NCBI RefSeq assembly: GCF_003334305.1
Contig: NZ_QOWS01000004.1
Strand: one strand, 5' to 3'
Source: Escherichia coli
GTDB taxonomy: Bacteria > Pseudomonadota > Gammaproteobacteria > Enterobacterales > Enterobacteriaceae
Length of the DNA stretch: 64,000 bases
Part shown: piece after piece, positions 1-41,312 of the stretch
Numbering within the stretch: position 1 is the stretch's first letter
How the letters are laid out: each line of letters starts with the position of its first letter
Program-made: the position numbers and the translations under genes
The notes under the pieces: generated by a model
Told to the model about the DNA's origin: nothing
What the model saw: the letters and a program-made list of their open reading frames with translations, nothing else
Databases searched by the model: none

Positions 1-550
1 GCAGGCGCAGATCCAGCGTGCCATAACGCTGCCACAGCAGCCAGCAAGCAATCGCCAGCAGCAGAGTGCCAAGACGCCCCAGCGCAAACCACAGTTTGCC
101 CTCTTTGCTGTTGCTGGTAAGGAACACCGCACACAAGGCCATGACTTCAGCCATTACCACGAACATGCCGAGGTTGCTGGCGATGACGGCGCAGACGGCG
201 GCAGCCATCAACATATTGATCTGCAAGCCGTTGCACTTCACCTGCGCGTGGCGATGCCAGTCAATGTTGTAGAGGCTGACAAACAGACCGCACAGACCGA
301 GCGTAATCAGCCAAATCGCGTTAAGCGGAGAGATTTGCACATCGTAGCTTACCAGCGACAGCGCACCGCTCACGCCAACCGCGCCAGTCAGTACAGTGAA
401 GCCCGCGGCTGCCGTATACAGACTACCAACCGCGCCGCCAATTCCGGCTATCCAGCCACTTAGCGTCTTTTGAAAAGAAAAGAGAAATGCCAGAACAGCG
501 GCGGCGACAAACCATGCCACGCCGCTATTGATCAGGGAAATTGCGCTCAT
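1..550 (-). CDS. hycC: Formate hydrogenlyase membrane subunit HycC, N-terminal part; gene continues beyond window start
   Basis: Minus-strand frame open from ATG at 550-548 to the window edge; translation begins MSAISLINSGVAWFVAAAVLAF (hydrophobic); ATGA overlap with the hycB stop. Confidence 0.85.
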   Translation of the reverse strand, partial: MSAISLINSGVAWFVAAAVLAFLFSFQKTLSGWIAGIGGAVGSLYTAAAGFTVLTGAVGVSGALSLVSYDVQISPLNAIWLITLGLCGLFVSLYNIDWHRHAQVKCNGLQINMLMAAAVCAVIASNLGMFVVMAEVMALCAVFLTSNSKEGKLWFALGRLGTLLLAIACWLLWQRYGTLDLRL

Positions 551-1158
551 TTAGCCTCTCCACTTTGAGCCTGCTGAAACAAGGTGAGATCGCCAAAGTC
601 CGTGTTAAAGGTCAGCTCACGCTTACGTTTGCTGACGCGGGCGATATCGGTGTTATCCACCAGATGCAGGGCTTTAGTCGGGCACATCCGCACGCAGGCC
701 GGACCTTGTTCATCAAAACTGCAAAGGTCACATTTGACGGCGATCGCGCGAATACCCGGCACCCAGTCAAGCAGCGTACTGATACGCGCCGGAGCAGGCG
801 GTGCCGGTGGCGCTTTCGGGGTATTGGCATTTGCAGGAATATCCAGCGGACGGCTGCCGGAAAATTCAATTGCGCCAAACGGGCAGGCGATGCCGCACAG
901 CTTGCAGCTTACGCACAGGCTTTCATTCAACTGCACGGCCCCATCAACGCGGGTGATGGCGTTAACCGGGCAGACCACCGCGCAGGGTGCATCTTCACAG
1001 TGGTGACAGAGCTGCGGCGCAGATTCTTTTTCATTTAGCATCACTCTCAGGCGCGGCATTGATTGCAGGCCGTGCTGGCGATGCGTCTCTGAACAGGCGG
1101 CCTCACAAGTGTGGCAGCCGATACAGAGCGTGGAGTCAGCAATTACAAAACGATTCAC
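547..1158 (-). CDS. hycB: Formate hydrogenlyase 4Fe-4S ferredoxin-type subunit HycB
   Basis: 203-aa ORF with repeated CxxCxxCxxxCP cluster motifs; synteny hycA-hycB-hycC. Confidence 0.93.
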   Translation of the reverse strand: MNRFVIADSTLCIGCHTCEAACSETHRQHGLQSMPRLRVMLNEKESAPQLCHHCEDAPCAVVCPVNAITRVDGAVQLNESLCVSCKLCGIACPFGAIEFSGSRPLDIPANANTPKAPPAPPAPARISTLLDWVPGIRAIAVKCDLCSFDEQGPACVRMCPTKALHLVDNTDIARVSKRKRELTFNTDFGDLTLFQQAQSGEAK

Positions 1159-1282
1159 CAGGCATTCCTCAGGTGATTGTCATTTTTGACGAAAACATGC
1201 CGATGAAATGTCATTTTCGACACTCATCGACACGCCCATCCCCAAACAGGCGTAACGCCTGCAAAACGGGCAAAGCCTCAGC

Positions 1283-1744
1283 TCATGCTGCCGGGCTTTG
1301 TCCCTTTACCAGTTGGCTTAAATTCACCGGCACATTGTTTTCAATGGCGGTGTATAAGCTGTCGTAAACGCCAGCGATTTTTTCGAGATAGTGTTCCAGA
1401 ACCTGTTCGCGATCGCGGATGTTGACCTTGCCATCAATCATGCCGTCAATGCTCAGTTGCGCCTGCGCAATCCGCTGTTTGTCTTCGCCATCTTTTGTTT
1501 CGACGTAATACTCGATGGTGTGGCTGTTAAAGCCATCCGCCAGGGTGACGTAAATACGAAAATGTTCAAAAAGGACGAAACAGAGTTCTTTGTCCGGCGC
1601 GCAGCTCATGGCGTGATGCAGGCGCGCTTTCGATAACGTGATCCCCTGAACCAGCGAATTGCAGTAGATGTGCCACTGGTCCTGTAGGCGACGATGCCGC
1701 TGTGCGATGTAATCGGCTTTCTCGCTTATTTCCCAAATAGTCAT
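1283..1744 (-). CDS. hycA: Formate hydrogenlyase regulatory protein HycA
   Basis: 153-aa ORF (MTIWEISEKADYIAQ...); divergent from hypA. Confidence 0.9.
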   Translation of the reverse strand: MTIWEISEKADYIAQRHRRLQDQWHIYCNSLVQGITLSKARLHHAMSCAPDKELCFVLFEHFRIYVTLADGFNSHTIEYYVETKDGEDKQRIAQAQLSIDGMIDGKVNIRDREQVLEHYLEKIAGVYDSLYTAIENNVPVNLSQLVKGQSPAA

Positions 1745-1780
1745 TGTCAGGTTACCCGTTTAACAGAGATGCCAGCTTTA

Positions 1781-1795
1781 AGCATTTTTTGTGCC
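1781..1795 (-). promoter_or_regulatory. Candidate sigma-54 (-24/-12) promoter for hyc operon
   Basis: Minus strand reads TGGCAC-N7-ATGC with GG and GC at the canonical 10-nt spacing, about 40 bp upstream of hycA ATG. Confidence 0.5.
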
Positions 1796-1851
1796 AACTT
1801 TTAATTTATTGTTATTAAAGAGATTTTTAAGCTAAAGATGAATTTCGTCGC

Positions 1852-1883
1852 CGTGTCGACGTGTCATTTCGACATCATCGACA
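1852..1883. promoter_or_regulatory. Candidate FhlA upstream activating sequence (inverted TGTCGACA/TCGACA repeats)
   Basis: Sequence tgtcgacgtgtcatttcgacatcatcgaca lies between the divergent sigma-54 promoters; FhlA is encoded in the same locus. Confidence 0.5.
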
Positions 1884-1909
1884 TTATTCACCGCAGGGAT
1901 AATCAACAC

Positions 1910-1925
1910 TGGCACAATTATTGCT
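1910..1925 (+). promoter_or_regulatory. Candidate sigma-54 (-24/-12) promoter for hyp operon
   Basis: TGGCACaattaTTGCT about 30 bp upstream of hypA ATG. Confidence 0.55.
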
Positions 1926-1955
1926 TGTAGCTGGCAATAGTTAATGGGAGGCGAT

Positions 1956-2306
1956 ATGCACGAAATAACCCTCTGCCAACGGGCACTGGAATTGATCGAA
2001 CAGCAGGCCGCAAAACACGGCGCAAAACGCGTAACTGGGGTCTGGCTCAAAATTGGCGCATTTTCTTGTGTCGAAACCAGCTCTCTTGCCTTTTGTTTTG
2101 ATCTGGTTTGCCGCGGCAGCGTGGCGGAAGGTTGTAAACTGCACCTCGAAGAACAAGAGGCCGAATGCTGGTGTGAAACATGCCAACAGTATGTGACGCT
2201 ACTGACCCAGCGCGTCCGCCGCTGTCCACAGTGTCATGGTGACATGCTACAGATTGTGGCAGACGACGGTTTACAGATTCGGCGGATAGAAATAGACCAG
2301 GAGTGA
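1956..2306 (+). CDS. hypA: Hydrogenase nickel-incorporation protein HypA
   Basis: Start chosen at MHEITLCQRALEL (116 aa) inside the 120-aa track ORF; C-terminal CxxC...CxxC zinc motif. Confidence 0.88.
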   Translation: MHEITLCQRALELIEQQAAKHGAKRVTGVWLKIGAFSCVETSSLAFCFDLVCRGSVAEGCKLHLEEQEAECWCETCQQYVTLLTQRVRRCPQCHGDMLQIVADDGLQIRRIEIDQE

Positions 2307-2309
2307 GCG

Positions 2310-3182
2310 ATGTGTACAACATGCGGTTGCGGTGAAGGCAACCTGTATATCGAGGGTGATGAACATAACCCTCATTCCGCGTTTCGTAGCGCGCCATTTG
2401 CCCCGGCGGCACGCCCGAAGATGAAAATCACCGGCATTAAAGCGCCTGAATTTACCCCCAGCCAGACTGAAGAAGGCGACCTGCATTACGGTCATGGCGA
2501 AGCGGGCACTCACGCACCGGGCATGAGCCAGCGTCGGATGCTGGAAGTCGAAATTGACGTGCTGGACAAAAACAACCGTCTGGCTGAACGCAACCGCGCG
2601 CGCTTTGCTGCCCGCAAGCAACTGGTGCTCAACCTGGTTTCCAGCCCTGGTTCCGGTAAAACCACCCTGCTGACGGAAACCTTAATGCGCCTGAAAGACA
2701 GCGTTCCGTGCGCGGTTATTGAAGGTGACCAGCAAACCGTGAACGATGCCGCACGCATTCGCGCTACCGGCACACCAGCGATTCAGGTGAACACCGGTAA
2801 AGGCTGCCATCTTGACGCACAGATGATTGCCGACGCCGCACCGCGTCTGCCACTGGACGATAACGGTATTCTGTTTATCGAAAACGTTGGCAACCTCGTA
2901 TGCCCGGCCAGCTTCGATCTCGGTGAAAAACACAAAGTGGCGGTGCTTTCCGTTACCGAAGGTGAAGACAAACCGCTGAAATATCCGCATATGTTTGCCG
3001 CCGCCTCGCTGATGCTGCTCAACAAAGTTGACCTGTTGCCGTATCTCAACTTTGACGTTGAAAAGTGCATCGCCTGCGCCCGCGAAGTCAATCCAGAAAT
3101 TGAAATCATCCTTATTTCCGCCACCAGCGGTGAAGGGATGGACCAGTGGCTGAACTGGCTGGAGACACAGCGATGTGCATAG
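2310..3182 (+). CDS. hypB: Hydrogenase maturation GTPase HypB
   Basis: 290 aa; N-terminal MCTTCGCG metal-binding motif and GSGKTT P-loop. Confidence 0.93.
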
Positions 3183-3445
3183 GCGTTCCCGGCCAGATCC
3201 GCACCATTGACGGCAACCAGGCAAAAGTCGACGTCTGCGGCATTCAGCGCGATGTCGATTTAACGTTAGTCGGCAGCTGCGATGAAAACGGTCAGCCGCG
3301 CGTGGGCCAGTGGGTACTGGTACACGTTGGCTTTGCCATGAGCGTAATTAATGAAGCCGAAGCACGCGACACTCTCGACGCCTTACAAAACATGTTTGAC
3401 GTTGAGCCGGATGTCGGCGCGCTGTTGTATGGCGAGGAAAAATAA
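3173..3445 (+). CDS. hypC: Hydrogenase maturation chaperone HypC
   Basis: 90 aa starting MCIGVPGQI (conserved N-terminal Cys); overlaps hypB 3' end. Confidence 0.85.
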
Positions 3446-4566
3446 TGCGTTTTGTTGATGAATATCGCGCGCCGGAACAGGTGATGCAGTTAATTGAGCA
3501 TCTGCGCGAACGTGCTTCACATCTCTCTTACACCGCCGAACGCCCTCTGCGGATTATGGAAGTGTGCGGTGGTCATACCCACGCTATTTTTAAATTCGGC
3601 CTCGACCAGTTACTGCCTGAAAACGTTGAGTTTATCCACGGTCCGGGTTGCCCGGTGTGCGTACTGCCGATGGGTAGAATCGACACCTGCGTGGAGATTG
3701 CCAGCCATCCGGAAGTCATCTTCTGTACCTTTGGCGACGCCATGCGCGTACCAGGGAAACAGGGATCGCTGTTGCAGGCAAAAGCACGCGGTGCCGATGT
3801 GCGCATCGTTTACTCGCCGATGGATGCGTTGAAACTGGCGCAGGAGAATCCAACCCGCAAAGTGGTGTTCTTCGGCTTAGGTTTTGAAACCACCATGCCG
3901 ACCACCGCCATCACTCTGCAACAGGCGAAAGCGCGTGATGTGCAGAATTTTTACTTCTTCTGCCAGCATATTACGCTTATCCCGACGCTTCGCAGTTTGC
4001 TGGAACAGCCGGATAACGGTATCGACGCGTTCCTCGCGCCGGGCCACGTTAGTATGGTTATCGGCACTGATGCCTATAATTTTATCGCCAGCGATTTTCA
4101 TCGTCCGCTGGTGGTGGCTGGTTTCGAACCGCTTGATCTACTGCAAGGCGTGGTCATGCTGGTGGAGCAGAAAATAGCGGCCCACAGCAAGGTAGAGAAT
4201 CAGTATCGTCGGGTGGTACCGGATGCCGGTAACCTGCTGGCGCAACAGGCGATTGCCGATGTGTTCTGTGTCAACGGCGACAGCGAATGGCGCGGCTTAG
4301 GCGTGATTGAATCTTCTGGTGTACACCTGACGCCAGATTATCAACGATTCGATGCCGAAGCGCATTTCCGCCCGGCACCGCAGCAGGTCTGCGATGACCC
4401 GCGCGCACGTTGTGGTGAAGTATTAACGGGCAAATGTAAGCCGCATCAATGCCCGCTGTTTGGTAACACCTGTAATCCTCAAACCGCATTTGGTGCACTG
4501 ATGGTCTCCTCCGAAGGAGCGTGCGCCGCGTGGTATCAGTATCGTCAGCAGGAGAGTGAAGCGTGA
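3445..4566 (+). CDS. hypD: Hydrogenase maturation protein HypD
   Basis: 373 aa with CGxH and CPVC motifs; start overlaps hypC stop. Confidence 0.93.
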   Translation: MRFVDEYRAPEQVMQLIEHLRERASHLSYTAERPLRIMEVCGGHTHAIFKFGLDQLLPENVEFIHGPGCPVCVLPMGRIDTCVEIASHPEVIFCTFGDAMRVPGKQGSLLQAKARGADVRIVYSPMDALKLAQENPTRKVVFFGLGFETTMPTTAITLQQAKARDVQNFYFFCQHITLIPTLRSLLEQPDNGIDAFLAPGHVSMVIGTDAYNFIASDFHRPLVVAGFEPLDLLQGVVMLVEQKIAAHSKVENQYRRVVPDAGNLLAQQAIADVFCVNGDSEWRGLGVIESSGVHLTPDYQRFDAEAHFRPAPQQVCDDPRARCGEVLTGKCKPHQCPLFGNTCNPQTAFGALMVSSEGACAAWYQYRQQESEA

Positions 4567-5573
4567 ATAATATCCAACTCGCCCACGGCAGCGGCGGCCA
4601 GGCGATGCAGCAATTAATCAACAGCCTGTTTATGGAAGCCTTTGCCAACCCGTGGCTGGCAGAGCAGGAAGATCAGGCACGTCTTGATCTGGCGCAGCTG
4701 GTAGCAGAAGGCGATCGTCTGGCGTTCTCCACCGACAGTTACGTCATTGACCCGCTGTTCTTTCCTGGCGGTAATATCGGCAAGCTGGCGATTTGCGGCA
4801 CTGCGAATGACGTTGCGGTCAGTGGCGCTATTCCGCGCTATCTCTCCTGTGGCTTTATCCTCGAAGAAGGATTGCCGATGGAGACACTGAAAGCCGTAGT
4901 GACCAGCATGGCAGAAACCGCCCGCACGGCAGGCATTGCCATCGTTACTGGCGATACTAAAGTGGTGCAGCGCGGCGCGGCAGATAAACTGTTTATCAAC
5001 ACCGCTGGCATGGGCGCAATTCCGGCGAATATTCACTGGGGCGCACAGACGCTAACCGCAGGCGATGTATTACTGGTTAGCGGCACGCTCGGCGACCACG
5101 GGGCGACTATCCTTAACCTGCGTGAGCAGCTGGGGCTGGATGGCGAACTGGTCAGCGACTGCGCGGTACTGACGCCGCTTATTCAGACGCTGCGTGACAT
5201 TCCCGGCGTGAAAGCGCTGCGTGATGCCACCCGTGGTGGTGTGAACGCGGTAGTTCATGAGTTCGCGGCAGCCTGCGGTTGTGGTATTGAAATTTCAGAA
5301 GCGGCACTGCCGGTTAAACCTGCTGTGCGCGGCGTTTGCGAACTGCTGGGACTGGACGCCCTTAACTTTGCCAACGAAGGCAAACTGGTGATCGCCGTTG
5401 AACGCAACGCGGCAGAGCAAGTGCTGGCAGCGTTACATTCCCATCCACTGGGAAAAGACGCGGCGCTGATTGGTGAAGTGGTGGAACGTAAAGGTGTTCG
5501 TCTTGCCGGTCTGTATGGCGTGAAACGAACCCTCGATTTACCACACGCCGAACCGCTTCCGCGTATATGCTAA
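4563..5573 (+). CDS. hypE: Hydrogenase maturation carbamoyl dehydratase HypE
   Basis: 336 aa; codon at 4563 is GTG; C-terminal PRIC motif. Confidence 0.9.
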   Translation: MNNIQLAHGSGGQAMQQLINSLFMEAFANPWLAEQEDQARLDLAQLVAEGDRLAFSTDSYVIDPLFFPGGNIGKLAICGTANDVAVSGAIPRYLSCGFILEEGLPMETLKAVVTSMAETARTAGIAIVTGDTKVVQRGAADKLFINTAGMGAIPANIHWGAQTLTAGDVLLVSGTLGDHGATILNLREQLGLDGELVSDCAVLTPLIQTLRDIPGVKALRDATRGGVNAVVHEFAAACGCGIEISEAALPVKPAVRGVCELLGLDALNFANEGKLVIAVERNAAEQVLAALHSHPLGKDAALIGEVVERKGVRLAGLYGVKRTLDLPHAEPLPRIC

Positions 5574-5646
5574 TAAAATTCTAAATCTCCTATAGTTAGT
5601 CAATGACCTTTTGCACCGCTTTGCGGTGCTTTCCTGGAAGAACAAA

Positions 5647-7725
5647 ATGTCATATACACCGATGAGTGATCTCGGACAGCAAGGGTTGTTCGACATCACT
5701 CGGACACTATTGCAGCAGCCCGATCTGGCCTCGCTGTGTGAGGCTCTTTCGCAACTGGTAAAGCGTTCTGCGCTCGCCGACAACGCGGCTATTGTGTTGT
5801 GGCAAGCGCAGACTCAACGTGCGTCTTATTACGCATCGCGTGAAAAAGACACCCCCATTAAATATGAAGACGAAACTGTTCTGGCACACGGTCCGGTACG
5901 CAGCATTTTGTCGCGCCCTGATACGCTGCATTGCAGTTACGAAGAATTTTGTGAAACCTGGCCGCAGCTGGCCGCAGGTGGGCTATACCCAAAATTTGGT
6001 CACTATTGCCTGATGCCACTGGCGGCGGAAGGGCATATTTTTGGTGGCTGTGAATTTATTCGTTATGACGATCGCCCCTGGAGCGAAAAAGAGTTCAATC
6101 GTCTGCAAACATTTACGCAGATCGTTTCTGTCGTCACCGAACAAATCCAGAGCCGCGTCGTTAACAATGTCGACTATGAGTTGTTATGCCGGGAACGCGA
6201 TAACTTCCGCATCCTGGTCGCCATCACCAACGCGGTGCTTTCCCGCCTGGATATGGACGAACTGGTCAGCGAAGTCGCCAAAGAAATCCATTACTATTTC
6301 GACATTGACGATATCAGTATCGTCTTACGCAGCCACCGTAAAAACAAACTCAACATCTACTCCACTCACTATCTTGATAAACAGCATCCCGCCCACGAAC
6401 AGAGCGAAGTCGATGAAGCCGGAACCCTCACCGAACGCGTGTTCAAAAGTAAAGAGATGCTGCTGATCAATCTCCACGAGCGGGACGATTTAGCCCCCTA
6501 TGAACGCATGTTGTTCGACACCTGGGGCAACCAGATTCAAACCTTGTGCCTGTTACCGCTGATGTCTGGCGACACCATGCTGGGCGTGCTGAAACTGGCG
6601 CAATGCGAAGAGAAAGTGTTTACCACTACCAATCTGAATTTACTGCGCCAGATTGCCGAACGTGTGGCAATCGCTGTCGATAACGCCCTCGCCTATCAGG
6701 AAATCCATCGTCTGAAAGAACGGCTGGTTGATGAAAACCTCGCCCTGACCGAGCAGCTCAACAATGTTGATAGTGAATTTGGCGAGATTATTGGCCGCAG
6801 CGAAGCCATGTACAGCGTGCTTAAACAAGTTGAAATGGTGGCGCAAAGTGACAGTACCGTGCTGATCCTCGGTGAAACTGGCACGGGTAAAGAGCTGATT
6901 GCCCGTGCGATCCATAATCTCAGTGGGCGTAATAATCGCCGCATGGTCAAAATGAACTGCGCGGCGATGCCTGCCGGATTGCTGGAAAGCGATCTGTTTG
7001 GTCATGAGCGTGGGGCTTTTACCGGTGCCAGCGCCCAGCGCATTGGTCGTTTTGAACTGGCGGATAAAAGCTCCCTGTTCCTCGACGAAGTGGGCGATAT
7101 GCCACTGGAGTTACAGCCGAAGTTGCTGCGTGTATTGCAGGAACAGGAGTTTGAACGTCTCGGCAGCAACAAAATCATTCAGACGGACGTGCGTCTAATC
7201 GCCGCGACTAACCGCGATCTGAAAAAAATGGTCGCCGACCGTGAGTTCCGTAGCGATCTCTATTACCGCCTGAACGTATTCCCGATTCACCTGCCGCCAC
7301 TACGCGAGCGTCCGGAAGATATTCCGCTGCTGGCGAAAGCCTTTACCTTCAAAATTGCCCGTCGTCTGGGGCGCAATATCGACAGCATTCCTGCCGAGAC
7401 GCTGCGCACCTTGAGCAACATGGAGTGGCCGGGTAACGTACGCGAACTGGAAAACGTCATTGAGCGCGCGGTATTGCTAACACGCGGTAACGTGCTGCAG
7501 CTGTCATTGCCAGATATTGTTTTACCGGAACCTGAAACGCCGCCTGCCGCAACGGTTGTCGCCCAGGAGGGCGAAGATGAATATCAGTTGATTGTTCGCG
7601 TGCTGAAAGAAACCAACGGCGTGGTTGCCGGGCCTAAAGGCGCTGCGCAACGTCTGGGGCTGAAACGCACGACCCTGCTGTCACGGATGAAGCGGCTGGG
7701 AATTGATAAATCGGCATTGATTTAA
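5647..7725 (+). CDS. fhlA: Formate hydrogenlyase transcriptional activator FhlA (sigma-54 enhancer-binding protein)
   Basis: Start chosen at MSYTPMSDLGQQ (692 aa) inside the 704-aa track ORF; GETGTGKE AAA+ motif and C-terminal HTH. Confidence 0.9.
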   Translation: MSYTPMSDLGQQGLFDITRTLLQQPDLASLCEALSQLVKRSALADNAAIVLWQAQTQRASYYASREKDTPIKYEDETVLAHGPVRSILSRPDTLHCSYEEFCETWPQLAAGGLYPKFGHYCLMPLAAEGHIFGGCEFIRYDDRPWSEKEFNRLQTFTQIVSVVTEQIQSRVVNNVDYELLCRERDNFRILVAITNAVLSRLDMDELVSEVAKEIHYYFDIDDISIVLRSHRKNKLNIYSTHYLDKQHPAHEQSEVDEAGTLTERVFKSKEMLLINLHERDDLAPYERMLFDTWGNQIQTLCLLPLMSGDTMLGVLKLAQCEEKVFTTTNLNLLRQIAERVAIAVDNALAYQEIHRLKERLVDENLALTEQLNNVDSEFGEIIGRSEAMYSVLKQVEMVAQSDSTVLILGETGTGKELIARAIHNLSGRNNRRMVKMNCAAMPAGLLESDLFGHERGAFTGASAQRIGRFELADKSSLFLDEVGDMPLELQPKLLRVLQEQEFERLGSNKIIQTDVRLIAATNRDLKKMVADREFRSDLYYRLNVFPIHLPPLRERPEDIPLLAKAFTFKIARRLGRNIDSIPAETLRTLSNMEWPGNVRELENVIERAVLLTRGNVLQLSLPDIVLPEPETPPAATVVAQEGEDEYQLIVRVLKETNGVVAGPKGAAQRLGLKRTTLLSRMKRLGIDKSALI

Positions 7726-7734
7726 CTGCAAATT

Positions 7735-7758
7735 GCCGGACAGATCTGCCTGTCCGGC
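7735..7758. terminator. Hairpin between convergent fhlA and ygbA (candidate bidirectional terminator)
   Basis: gccggacag-atctgc-ctgtccggc, 9-bp perfect stem. Confidence 0.5.
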
Positions 7759-7761
7759 ATA

Positions 7762-8115
7762 CTATTCACGAGGTTTTTTCGGACGATATTTTTCCGGCAG
7801 TTCTGGCACCGGACGCTTGTCATCGATGAGATGACGCACGGTTAAGATCGGATGACGCCACAGCATTCTCGGCCCGGCCCAACGCATAATCTGTTTCATC
7901 TCTTCACGCTTTGCAGGCTGGTAACAGTGCACCGGACACTGCTTACAGGCTGGTTTCTCTTCGCCGAACACACATTTATCCAGCCGCTTTTGCGCGTAAA
8001 CAAACAACGCCTCGTAATGCTCCGGCTCCGCTGACGCCTGCGGGCATTTCGCTTGATAAAGATCGATCATTTTTTTAATCGTCAGTTTTTCACGAGAGAT
8101 ACGCTTGCCGGACAT
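7762..8115 (-). CDS. ygbA: Cys-rich small protein YgbA (NsrR-regulon member)
   Basis: 117-aa ORF matching YgbA. Confidence 0.85.
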   Translation of the reverse strand: MSGKRISREKLTIKKMIDLYQAKCPQASAEPEHYEALFVYAQKRLDKCVFGEEKPACKQCPVHCYQPAKREEMKQIMRWAGPRMLWRHPILTVRHLIDDKRPVPELPEKYRPKKPRE

Positions 8116-38612: not shown

Positions 38613-41312
38613 TCAACCAACCTTGCCAATCAATCCTTCCGTAGCCGAATACCCGCAACTTTCGTCATCGTTGACTAAAATCACGTTTGCCATCTCCGGA
38701 TCTTGTCGCTGTTCAATGCACCACAGCCTGAACGCCTCTCCCTCCAGTAAAGAAAACTCATCCCGATGTTTTTTCCACCAGCTTCGGCGCACTCTGACAA
38801 CGCTCATTTCCCATGCGTGAGCACCGGTGGCATAAGGCTTCACCACACCGTCAATACAGGTAGCCAGCCACAGGGAAACAGACTCCTCAGCCAGACGTGT
38901 CGACAGTTTTTCCGGGAGGTAATCGTTGATATTGGCGGCATAGCCGGGCCTGAAGTTCAGCACAAACTTTTTAGCCATTGCGCGATCGCAGTAATATTTG
39001 CCCACTTGCTCCTGCTCGCTGCGGGCAAATCCTTCCGGCATTACCACGTCCTCACCGTAGACGGATTCAATAAGAAGCCGGGCTGCGTATGGCATCTGAA
39101 TAGCACCTTGCTCACGCAGCACACGCTGCGTCAGCCAGATTCGCCCATGATCGGGATAGACAAATGCACTGTTACGCATGGCACTGCCAAACCATTCGTC
39201 GCCAGGAGAGTCGTCCCAGACGGGAGCCAGAATCAGCAATTCAGGGGGGGAACGCTCGTCCTTTCCGTCACGCTTTAACTGACCATTAATATCGCGGATA
39301 TGCCGCTGTAATCGTCCTGCTCGCTGAATCAGCAAATCAACAGGGGCCAGGTCGGAGATCATTTCGTCCAGGTCAATATCCACGCTTTGCTCAATTACTT
39401 GTGTACAAACAATGACTTGCGACGCTCTCTGTAAACTACAATATTTACCAAAGCGTGCCAGTGTCTCCGTTTCAATTCGCTGGCGATCGCTAAAAGCAAA
39501 GCGGCTATGAAAAAGTGAAAGGCTGGAAGCAGGAATGACGCCGCGGGCAAGCAGCTGACGATGAACCTTAATAGCGTCATCGACAGAATTCCGGATCCAG
39601 GCGATGCATTTCCCCTGACTTACCGCCGATTCGATACGCGCAATACACTCTTGTTCACTATGAAGCCAACCCACGCTGACGCTACGCTCAACGTCTTTGC
39701 GCGTCGCTACCCGGTGTGAGTTCACATCGGATTTCGTGACATGCGTCAGCCAGGGGTAATCATCCTTTTCCAGGAACGGAGCTTCTTGCAGGCCCTCTGT
39801 ACCCCGCGCAAAGGCAGCGACGAGTTTGTCGCGCTGCTGTTGAGATAACGTGGCAGAAAGCAAAATAACGCTGTTTCCGCCACGCGCCTGCCGCTCGATC
39901 AACCCTTCAAGAATGCACGACATGTAAGCGTCACAGGCGTGGATCTCATCAGCCAGCAGGATTTTGTTACTCAGCCCCAGAAGCCGCAGATTATTATGTT
40001 TGAACGGCATCACCGCCATCATCGCCTGATCCAGCGTGCCGACGCCAATTTCAGCCAGCAACGCCTTCTTGTTACTGTCGGCAAACCAGGCCGCACATCC
40101 CTGACTGAACGTTTGTTCATCCGGTTCTTCTGACCCGACTAAATCACCAGACCAGAGTGATTCATTAAAGCGGTCCATTAATGTGCGGGCACTATGTGCC
40201 AGCACCAGGCTGGGGCGGGATTCTGGCGAATAGAAAGCAAGCCAGGTTTTGACCAGCCGATCGTACATGGCATTGGCCGTTGCCATTGTTGGCAGACCAA
40301 AAAACAGCCCCTGAGCTTTCCCCGCAGCTATCAACCTGTGCGCCAGGATAAGCGCCGCTTCTGTTTTACCTGCGCCAGTCACATCTTCCAGAATAAATAA
40401 CTGCGGTCCTTGCTGGCTGATATCCAGATCCAGCACCTTTTGCTGTAACGGTGTCGGATTCTCAATAAAAGGAAACAGCGTATTAATTCCGTTGAAAGGC
40501 GCGACTTTTGCTTTTAGAGGAAAGACGGTTAAGGCGTTTTGAGCCTGAATTAAAGTTTTCTGCCAGTAACCTTTAATATCCATTGGGTGTGCGACGCGTG
40601 GAAAAAATCGCGTTGACGAACCCGTCCAGTCTGCGAGCACGACGGTTGCAGAGATATACCAGGAAAGGTGTTTTATAAGTTCAATGCCCTCATCATCATC
40701 CCAGAATGCGGGGATCTCTATGAGCGGAAACAGTGGTTTGATTTCAAGGAGAAAATCTCGTGCTGCAGCTTTGTCTTCAGGCAGAAAATTATCCAATTCA
40801 TCCATACGATCAGGGGGCCGACCATGATGCCCTGTCGTCACGGGCATCCACATTTCTATCACTCGCCTAAGTTTGCGCGGAGAGAGCGAAGATGAAGGAA
40901 GTAACTCCTGACATTCACTTAAATAATGATTCCACAACCAGTAGCCCAGCGTTGAATGAGAGATTTTTTCGTAATTTTTTCTGGCACCTTCCTGAATCTT
41001 GAGTTCAGGGGGCAGGTAAAGTTGTTGAAAAGAGCGGGCAAATTTTCCAATATCGTGCCAGCACAGCAACCAGGCGAAAAATTGAGCCGCCTGTTCCTTG
41101 TCAGAAATCCCTAATTGACGAAAATAATCAGCCAGCCCGAAGCAATTTCTTTTAACCATTAAATAGCCCATCGCGGCTACATCCAGCGAATGCCAGCAAA
41201 GAAGGTGATAGTCGTCGCCCCCGTCTTTCTCGCCGCGTCGGGTTTTTCCCCAGAAATCAAAAAAAGTCACAATATTTTTATCCTTCAGTAAACTTAAAGG
41301 ATATTTACGCAT
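38613..41312 (-). CDS. cas3: CRISPR-associated helicase-nuclease Cas3 (HD nuclease + DEAD/DEAH helicase)
   Basis: 899 aa; N-terminal HD motif (HDIGKF) and helicase motif GAGKTEAAL. Confidence 0.93.
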   Translation of the reverse strand: MRKYPLSLLKDKNIVTFFDFWGKTRRGEKDGGDDYHLLCWHSLDVAAMGYLMVKRNCFGLADYFRQLGISDKEQAAQFFAWLLCWHDIGKFARSFQQLYLPPELKIQEGARKNYEKISHSTLGYWLWNHYLSECQELLPSSSLSPRKLRRVIEMWMPVTTGHHGRPPDRMDELDNFLPEDKAAARDFLLEIKPLFPLIEIPAFWDDDEGIELIKHLSWYISATVVLADWTGSSTRFFPRVAHPMDIKGYWQKTLIQAQNALTVFPLKAKVAPFNGINTLFPFIENPTPLQQKVLDLDISQQGPQLFILEDVTGAGKTEAALILAHRLIAAGKAQGLFFGLPTMATANAMYDRLVKTWLAFYSPESRPSLVLAHSARTLMDRFNESLWSGDLVGSEEPDEQTFSQGCAAWFADSNKKALLAEIGVGTLDQAMMAVMPFKHNNLRLLGLSNKILLADEIHACDAYMSCILEGLIERQARGGNSVILLSATLSQQQRDKLVAAFARGTEGLQEAPFLEKDDYPWLTHVTKSDVNSHRVATRKDVERSVSVGWLHSEQECIARIESAVSQGKCIAWIRNSVDDAIKVHRQLLARGVIPASSLSLFHSRFAFSDRQRIETETLARFGKYCSLQRASQVIVCTQVIEQSVDIDLDEMISDLAPVDLLIQRAGRLQRHIRDINGQLKRDGKDERSPPELLILAPVWDDSPGDEWFGSAMRNSAFVYPDHGRIWLTQRVLREQGAIQMPYAARLLIESVYGEDVVMPEGFARSEQEQVGKYYCDRAMAKKFVLNFRPGYAANINDYLPEKLSTRLAEESVSLWLATCIDGVVKPYATGAHAWEMSVVRVRRSWWKKHRDEFSLLEGEAFRLWCIEQRQDPEMANVILVNDDESCGYSATEGLIGKVG

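Follow-up and report, generated by a model that had tools for sequence, protein, structure and literature searches.

The hyc-hyp control region of Escherichia coli: divergent sigma-54 promoters, FhlA-type blocks and their spacing across enterobacteria

The short spacer between the divergent genes hycA and hypA raises the question of how two operons that point away from each other are controlled from the same DNA, and of which activator sites serve which promoter. In the stretch of E. coli DNA analysed here (64,000 nt in total, referred to below as the window), this spacer belongs, with a probability of roughly 93%, to the native hyc-hyp control region of E. coli, in which two outward-facing sigma-54 promoters and one or more FhlA blocks form a formate switch. 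These divergent promoters are already known, having been studied since 1990 and found again in genome-wide work; the original description is that of Lutz et al. (1990, Mol Microbiol 4:13), "Characterization of divergent NtrA-dependent promoters...".

Locus and sigma-54 promoters

The locus is hycB-hycA / hypABCDE-fhlA of E. coli, and the promoters and the central enhancer lie in the 211-nt spacer between hycA and hypA. Many RefSeq E. coli chromosomes carry positions 1100-2400 of the window at 100% identity, a match to this segment is present in all of the complete E. coli genomes searched (5426/5426), and the sequence at the locus is 100% identical to that of several non-K-12 RefSeq genomes. 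The features under the segment correspond to the annotated genes hycB, hycA, hypA and hypB in RefSeq. In the ORF map, hypA is followed by hypB, hypC, hypD and hypE and then by a gene for a 692-residue protein ending at 7725, which is fhlA, the gene for the cognate activator of an FhlA enhancer. The names hycA and hypA, which the first-pass annotation had given to these genes, are correct according to RefSeq annotation and NCBIfam equivalogs, and FhlA is likewise named by an equivalog. The genes, leaders and promoters are as follows.

547-1158, minus strand: hycB (ORF map)
1283-1744, minus strand: hycA, formate hydrogenlyase regulator and first gene of the hyc operon (ORF, RefSeq, NCBIfam equivalog NF007567 with 301 bits)
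1745-1770, minus strand: 5' untranslated leader of hycA, with the predicted hyc start near 1770 as judged from the -12 element
1781-1797, minus strand: hyc sigma-54 promoter TTGGCACAAAAAATGCT, with GG at -24 and GC at -12; second-best match of the window; ChIP-seq site OS27
1909-1925, plus strand: hyp sigma-54 promoter CTGGCACAATTATTGCT; best match of the window with two matrices; ChIP-seq site OS28
1936-1955, plus strand: hypA leader, with the predicted start near 1936 and the Shine-Dalgarno sequence GGAGG at 1947-1951
1956-2306, plus strand: hypA, first gene of hypABCDE-fhlA (ORF, RefSeq, NCBIfam equivalog)
5647-7725, plus strand: fhlA, at the end of the hyp transcription unit, encoding the cognate enhancer-binding activator of sigma-54 (NCBIfam equivalog NF011958, 1548 bits, cut-off 830)

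Regarding the promoters, two opposite-facing -24/-12 elements had been proposed at 1781-1795 (minus) and 1910-1925 (plus), with position weight matrix scoring named as the way to check them, and both are present. The string TGGCACAATTATTGCT at 1910-1925(+) is an exact match to TGGCAC-N5-TTGCW and the sole one in 64 kb, where 0.17 are expected, and TGGCACAAAAAATGCT at 1781-1796(-) has one mismatch to this consensus (ATGC for TTGC), matches with one mismatch occurring in the window at chance frequency (4 seen vs 3.8 expected). Scoring with a sigma-54 matrix built from 40 other intergenic-sense E. coli ChIP-seq sites (Bonocora et al., 2015) placed 1909-1925(+) at rank 1 with 20.8 bits and 1781-1797(-) at rank 2 with 16.8 bits among approximately 128,000 positions on both strands; in simulated sequences, 16.8 bits or more turned up 0.36 times per 64 kb, and none of 200 simulations came to 20.8 bits. 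The same order, with the hyp site first and the hyc site second, was obtained with the independent 186-site Barrios-1999 matrix (printed in PMC7658346).

Each promoter faces its gene, with 26 nt from the predicted start to the ATG at hycA and 20 nt at hypA; these values fit the promoter-gene distances in Table 1 of Bonocora et al. (2015), which lists OS27 at hycA (26 nt from the gene, peak score 91) and OS28 at hypA (20 nt from the gene, peak score 201). The 17-nt promoter strings of the window are identical to these two published sites, both of which are flagged there as confirmed in EcoCyc, and the hypA site has the highest motif score of the intergenic table (Bonocora et al., 2015). The hycA leader is strongly conserved (majority-base frequency 0.80; 1745-1769 reads GGTTACCCGKTTAA on the plus strand), and in 1745-1770 neither an obvious Shine-Dalgarno sequence nor a significant predicted RNA fold was detected. 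The Shine-Dalgarno sequence of hypA is invariant in 25 representative spacers and has a mean majority-base frequency of 0.91 over all 81 spacers compared.

Three further observations concern sigma-54 motifs in the window. Taken together, the promoters make up an inverted repeat of 27 nt (1770-1796 and 1910-1936) that is 81% complementary and extends beyond the -12 elements to a common GCTGGCA at both predicted starts, an extension found only in Escherichia. The third-best matrix match, GTGGCACATCTACTGCA at 1660-1676(-) with 15.9 bits, lies in sense orientation inside hycA, too near the hyc promoter for the ChIP-seq data to resolve the two; it was rejected as a promoter, as it overlaps the codons for W-H-I-Y-C and 19 of 80 orthologues lack its -12 GC, having a synonymous TGT instead, and it is probably a coding by-product. 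Outside the hyc-hyp locus the best match, AAGGCGCGACTTTTGCT at 40496-40512(+), reaches 13.6 bits, well below both promoters.

Published data from E. coli and Salmonella bear on the same promoters. ChIP-chip in Salmonella detected sigma-54 binding at both promoters orthologous to those of hycA and hypA, Salmonella microarrays showed sigma-54-dependent expression of hycABCDEFGHI (26-fold) and hypABCDE (5.6-fold) with FhlA named as the activator, and genomic SELEX (gSELEX) gave an RpoN-holoenzyme peak in the hycA-hypA spacer. FhlA with formate is described in published papers as the activator of hyc and hyp, FhlA is reported in one paper to bind upstream of hyc and fdhF, IHF is given in one paper as an activator of hyc and hyp, and ModE is cited as a secondary hyc activator. 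The FhlA-dependent, formate-responsive control of both operons proposed in the first-pass annotation thus agrees with the literature and with sigma-54 ChIP-seq at both promoters. The dependence on rpoN and the position of the transcription starts, on which that proposal could have failed, have in effect been examined by others (ChIP-seq, ChIP-chip, gSELEX and expression in Salmonella), and it survived.

FhlA-type blocks and a candidate IHF site

Between the promoters, and in a second place within the hyc operon, the following candidate regulatory elements were detected.

1854-1884: central enhancer (UAS1), TGTCGAC-G-TGTCATTTCGACA-TCAT-CGACAT (conserved island, FhlA matrix, hexamer cluster, dyad)
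1862-1874, within UAS1: palindrome TGTC-N5-GACA
1870-1883, within UAS1: FhlA-matrix site
1178-1233: second FhlA-type block (UAS2) in the hycA-hycB spacer at 1159-1282 (FhlA matrix, conservation, motif statistics)
1178-1191, UAS2 unit: TGTCATTTTTGACG
1209-1222, UAS2 unit: TGTCATTTTCGACA
1218-1232, UAS2 unit: CGACACTCATCGACA
1802-1814, minus strand: IHF-like site TAACAATAAATTA, with 12/13 matches to WATCAANNNNTTR, between UAS1 and the hyc -24 element

The segment 1852-1883 (CGTGTCGACGTGTCATTTCGACATCATCGACA) had been described as an inverted-repeat block rich in the octamer TGTCGACA, which holds for the symmetry and not for the octamer: a nested imperfect dyad is present, with outer arms TGTCGA at 1854-1859 and TCGACA at 1878-1883 and inner arms TGTC at 1862-1865 and GACA at 1871-1874, and in place of the octamer there are the near-copies TGTCGACG, TTTCGACA and CATCGACA. 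The dyad was missed by a gapless repeat finder because its arm lengths differ by one base. The hairpin energy of UAS1 is ordinary compared with shuffles (z = -0.98), so that the symmetry alone is not significant, and changes in the outer arms across genera, inspected by eye for compensation, were mixed, about half being symmetric. The significance of UAS1 comes from its conservation and from motif clustering. It forms the conserved island between the promoters (1857-1885, majority-base frequency 0.84), and triplets of TCGWCA within 45 nt occur in the window only at 1854 and 1187 and were seen in 2 of 100 shuffled windows. Measured to the centre of UAS1 (1871), the upstream distance is approximately 101 nt for the predicted hyc start, which is usual for an enhancer, and approximately 65 nt for the predicted hyp start; since the latter distance is below the roughly 70-150 bp usually cited for enhancers upstream of sigma-54 promoters, and there is no IHF-like site on that side, the role of UAS1 at the hyp promoter is uncertain.

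Regarding the activator itself, the window was scanned with a published 14-position FhlA matrix made from 13 characterised sites with the consensus TGWC-RAWRAT-GWCA (PMC7658346, Table 2). The best match, TGTCGAAAATGACA at 1209-1222(-) with 17.4 bits, is in UAS2 and the second-best, TGTCGATGATGTCG at 1870-1883(-) with 16.2 bits, is in UAS1; ranks 4 and 5 fall at 1178-1191 with approximately 12 bits, and the best unrelated match has 12.25 bits. The top scores of the two blocks are 4-5 bits above background, a result that is partly circular as the matrix probably includes these very sites, and which indicates that UAS1 and the hycA-hycB spacer are each represented among the characterised FhlA sites. 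Support that is less circular is given by the count of the pattern GTCA-T(3-5)-YGAC, which was derived from UAS1 and occurs 3 times in 64 kb (at 1179, 1210 and 1863, all on the plus strand) against 0.13 expected, by the TCGWCA triplets, and by the hexamers upstream of other FhlA targets, with 3 copies of TCGWCA in the 197-nt spacer upstream of fdhF and 2 in the 148-nt hydN spacer compared with a density of 1.5 per kb.

Two descriptors of FhlA sites were tried and set aside. A 16-mer "consensus", CATTTCGTACGAAATG, as quoted in a review from Leonhartsberger (2000), matches best at 1865 (7 mismatches) and 1181 (5 mismatches), which is on the level of background, and the upstream regions of fdhF and hydN fail with it too; it separates no known FhlA region from background and was dropped, being a poor descriptor and not evidence against membership among FhlA enhancers. 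A gapless 29-nt matrix made from orthologous UAS1 blocks finds UAS1 alone, the units of UAS2 differing by 1-nt indels, and was replaced by gapped patterns, hexamer clustering and the published 14-nt matrix.

The placing of activator sites in the central block is supported, except that this block is not the only FhlA-type enhancer, as UAS2, which lies outside the coordinates of the first-pass annotation, holds the top FhlA-matrix match. In UAS2 the units TGTCATTTTCGACA and CGACACTCATCGACA have the order and orientation of TGTCATTTCGACA and CGACATCATCGACA in UAS1, with single-base differences in the spacers. The string GTCATTTTTGACGAAA in UAS2 is exactly conserved in 73 of 77 distinct orthologous hycA-hycB spacers, and no other non-coding part of the locus is as well conserved. 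The block is situated approximately 730 nt upstream of the predicted hyp start, and its hairpin energy stands out modestly from shuffles (z = -2.15). FhlA reportedly binds between hycA and hycB at a site that is said to be the hyp enhancer (Schlensog, Lutz and Bock, 1994, J Biol Chem 269:19590), and UAS2 (1178-1233) is presumably this known site. The unequal distances of UAS1 from the two predicted starts, with an IHF-like site on the hyc side only, agree with this assignment.

The RNA of this part of the hyc operon was also seen to fold well. The hyc-sense RNA of 1159-1320(-), running from the last part of hycA through the spacer to hycB, has a predicted energy of -65.6 kcal/mol, much better than shuffles (z = -4.55), and in this fold the hycA stop codon is spanned by a hairpin with arms at 1259-1277 and 1294-1312. 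Among the aligned representatives the segment 1240-1282 is present only in Escherichia, Salmonella, Citrobacter and Intestinirhabdus, and several versions of it (Salmonella, some Citrobacter) each have a different palindrome at this place. The fold could serve attenuation within the operon or RNA stability.

On the hyc side, the IHF-like site is adjoined by a tract of 82% A+T that reaches up to about 1841. Counted from the hyc -24 element, 27 of 81 loci have exact WATCAANNNNTTR at this offset and the remaining loci have near matches, and the site has a majority-base frequency of 0.77. The two-promoter layout is refined by this predicted site, which is present on the hyc side only. An IHF footprint at hyc is said to have been obtained in 1994 by Hopper and colleagues.

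Spacing of the elements across enterobacteria

The comparison covered 80 loci from a HycA scan with one genome per species (Escherichia, Salmonella, Citrobacter, Enterobacter, Klebsiella, Raoultella, Kluyvera, Kosakonia, Lelliottia, Pseudocitrobacter, Pseudescherichia and others), and the spacer counts refer to 81 orthologous spacers from approximately 20 enterobacterial genera. The order of divergent hypA, hycA and hycB is kept in 80/80 loci, and both sigma-54 promoter patterns, with their GG and GC dinucleotides, are present in 81/81 spacers. The enhancer core was detected in 72 of the 81; the remaining nine, a group of the Klebsiella/Raoultella type, have a block that is similar but rearranged. 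Alignment of the hycA-hypA spacers gives the core as GACRTGTCATTTCGWCA-N4-YGWCAT (1858-1884 in the window), and the conserved islands are the two -24/-12 elements, the UAS1 core, a TTTAA-N4-TTGAT island adjoining the hyc -24 element, and the hypA Shine-Dalgarno sequence. Mean majority-base frequencies are 0.85 for the hyc promoter, 0.84 for the enhancer core and 0.89 for the hyp promoter, compared with 0.40-0.52 for the segments between them.

The distances between these islands take few values. From the edge of the hyc -24 element to the enhancer core there are only 45, 56-59 or 67-68 nt, from the core to the TGGCA of the hyp -24 element only 45-47 or 57-58 nt (72 loci), and the promoter-to-promoter distance is 92, 102-103 or 112-116 nt. 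The classes are thus about one helical turn apart, and intermediate values are absent among the 81 loci. When counted by genus there were at least four or five separate spacing events, and in a clade of Kluyvera, Pseudocitrobacter and Superficieibacter the core has moved by one turn with the promoter-to-promoter distance still at 115-116 nt. That insertions and deletions come solely in steps of about one turn suggests a role of helical face at both promoters, an argument that is no more than suggestive because the independent events are few. As far as could be found, this comparative phasing pattern has not been described.

Proposed control, alternative readings and known systems

In the proposed mechanism, the hyc promoter (Phyc, 1781-1797 minus, start near 1770) drives hycABCDEFGHI and the hyp promoter (Phyp, 1909-1925 plus, start near 1936) drives hypABCDE-fhlA. 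Sigma-54 RNA polymerase, to judge from the published occupancy, would sit on both promoters as a closed complex, the opening of which would need the ATPase activator FhlA, itself activated by formate. FhlA is expected to bind the TGTC/GACA-type units of 1854-1884, approximately 101 nt upstream of the hyc start, a placing that combines motif and conservation data obtained here with binding known from the literature. IHF may bend the A+T-rich segment at approximately 1802-1835 and so bring FhlA from about -101 onto sigma-54 at Phyc, where, following the general mechanism given in the literature, ATP hydrolysis by FhlA would drive open-complex formation. UAS2, from its distant position, would most likely serve Phyp by long-range looping, with or without the central block; this allocation of enhancers to promoters is one that we infer. 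As the hyp unit ends with the gene for the activator FhlA and hycA encodes the anti-activator, the region sits inside both a positive and a negative feedback loop.

It is about an even bet that the two blocks divide the work strictly, UAS1 activating only Phyc and Phyp being activated solely from UAS2. Such a division is in line with the existence of UAS2 as a nearly invariant block with the best FhlA-matrix match, with the distance of approximately 65 nt between UAS1 and the hyp start, with an IHF-like site on the hyc side only, and with Schlensog et al. (1994), who reportedly place the hyp enhancer between hycA and hycB. The comparative data speak against it, as the UAS1 core keeps to 45-47 or 57-58 nt from the hyp -24 element across 72 loci, and the shifted core of the Kluyvera clade at a constant promoter-to-promoter distance suggests that phase relative to Phyp matters too. 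The whole-turn spacing may therefore be taken, suggestively and from sequence comparison, to keep alive a simpler model in which the central block would also act on hyp. In the fuller form of that model, which we regard as a minority possibility, FhlA at UAS1 activates both promoters, as has been reported of ZraR at zraP/zraSR, and UAS2 has a different or merely supporting function, for example as a loop anchor or, ahead of hycB, at the level of the RNA. Quantised spacing to both promoters, the dyad symmetry of UAS1, two very strong sigma-54 binders only 128 nt apart and the unusually good fold of the hyc-sense RNA across UAS2 (z = -4.55), which makes an RNA role conceivable, favour such sharing; against it stand the unit architecture of UAS2, which is that of UAS1 with a higher FhlA-matrix score, the 65 nt to the hyp start with no bending site, and the reported place of the hyp enhancer. 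The existence of UAS2 also argues against a strictly single enhancer. An arrangement of three sites, in which UAS1 is in helical register with both promoters and UAS2 acts as a second enhancer or loop anchor, is put forward tentatively and is more likely wrong than right.

Readings that dispense with sigma-54 or with FhlA are far less probable. That the promoters are chance motif matches and that ordinary sigma-70 promoters are used could appeal to the commonness of one-mismatch consensus matches and to one weak sigma-70-like match on the minus strand (1944-1917), but sigma-70-like matches are at shuffle level (1 vs 1.4), and the matrix ranks, the invariance in 81/81 spacers, the published ChIP-seq, ChIP-chip and gSELEX occupancy and the published rpoN-dependent expression contradict this reading, to which we give hardly any credence. 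It is also very unlikely that the central block acts at the transcript level, as a terminator or hairpin, or that it is bound by some other regulator in place of FhlA. A terminator scan does flag 1846-1861 with its T-rich tail, and the secondary activator ModE offers a candidate regulator; however, terminator matches are at chance level (1 vs 1.8), the hairpin energy of UAS1 is unremarkable, its motif is common to other FhlA targets, and it lies upstream of both predicted starts, so that neither operon transcribes it. No Rfam family was detected in 1-8000. The reading of the spacer as a formate-responsive sigma-54 control region, with FhlA as the activator, is thus retained.

This region controls the synthesis of formate hydrogenlyase and of hydrogenase maturation proteins, and with it fermentative hydrogen production and acid relief in enterobacteria, and the hyc-hyp spacer is among the strongest sigma-54 binding regions of the E. 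coli genome. Its re-finding mainly shows that real sigma-54 control regions are recognisable from sequence alone, and the whole-turn spacing classes and the nearly invariant UAS2 are of modest value for engineering hyc and hyp expression and for studies of enhancer sharing.

Regarding known systems, the hycA/hypA sigma-54 promoters of E. coli K-12 are the same locus, with identical 17-nt strings, fitting gene distances and the same genes and activator, and without substantive difference. The zraP / zraSR spacer of E. coli likewise holds an outward-facing pair of sigma-54 promoters, both bound in ChIP-seq, with centres 154 nt apart compared with 128 nt here; its activator ZraR is a zinc-sensing two-component response regulator, whereas FhlA is a formate-binding GAF-domain protein. 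In that system the one activator, ZraR, binds between the promoters, and we know of no second, operon-internal enhancer there. Promoters of the nifH and glnHp2 type, which are assisted by IHF, resemble the hyc side, where an A+T-rich, IHF-consensus-like element is also situated between enhancer and -24 element, the candidate site of E. coli hyc having one mismatch to the consensus. Within the FhlA/formate regulon, fdhF and hydN-hypF share with hyc and hyp a sigma-54 promoter and an upstream block rich in TCGWCA / TGWC-N6-GWCA, but these are single promoters without an exact GTCA-T(3-5)-YGAC, and their FhlA-matrix scores of 7-8 bits are lower than those of hyc and hyp.
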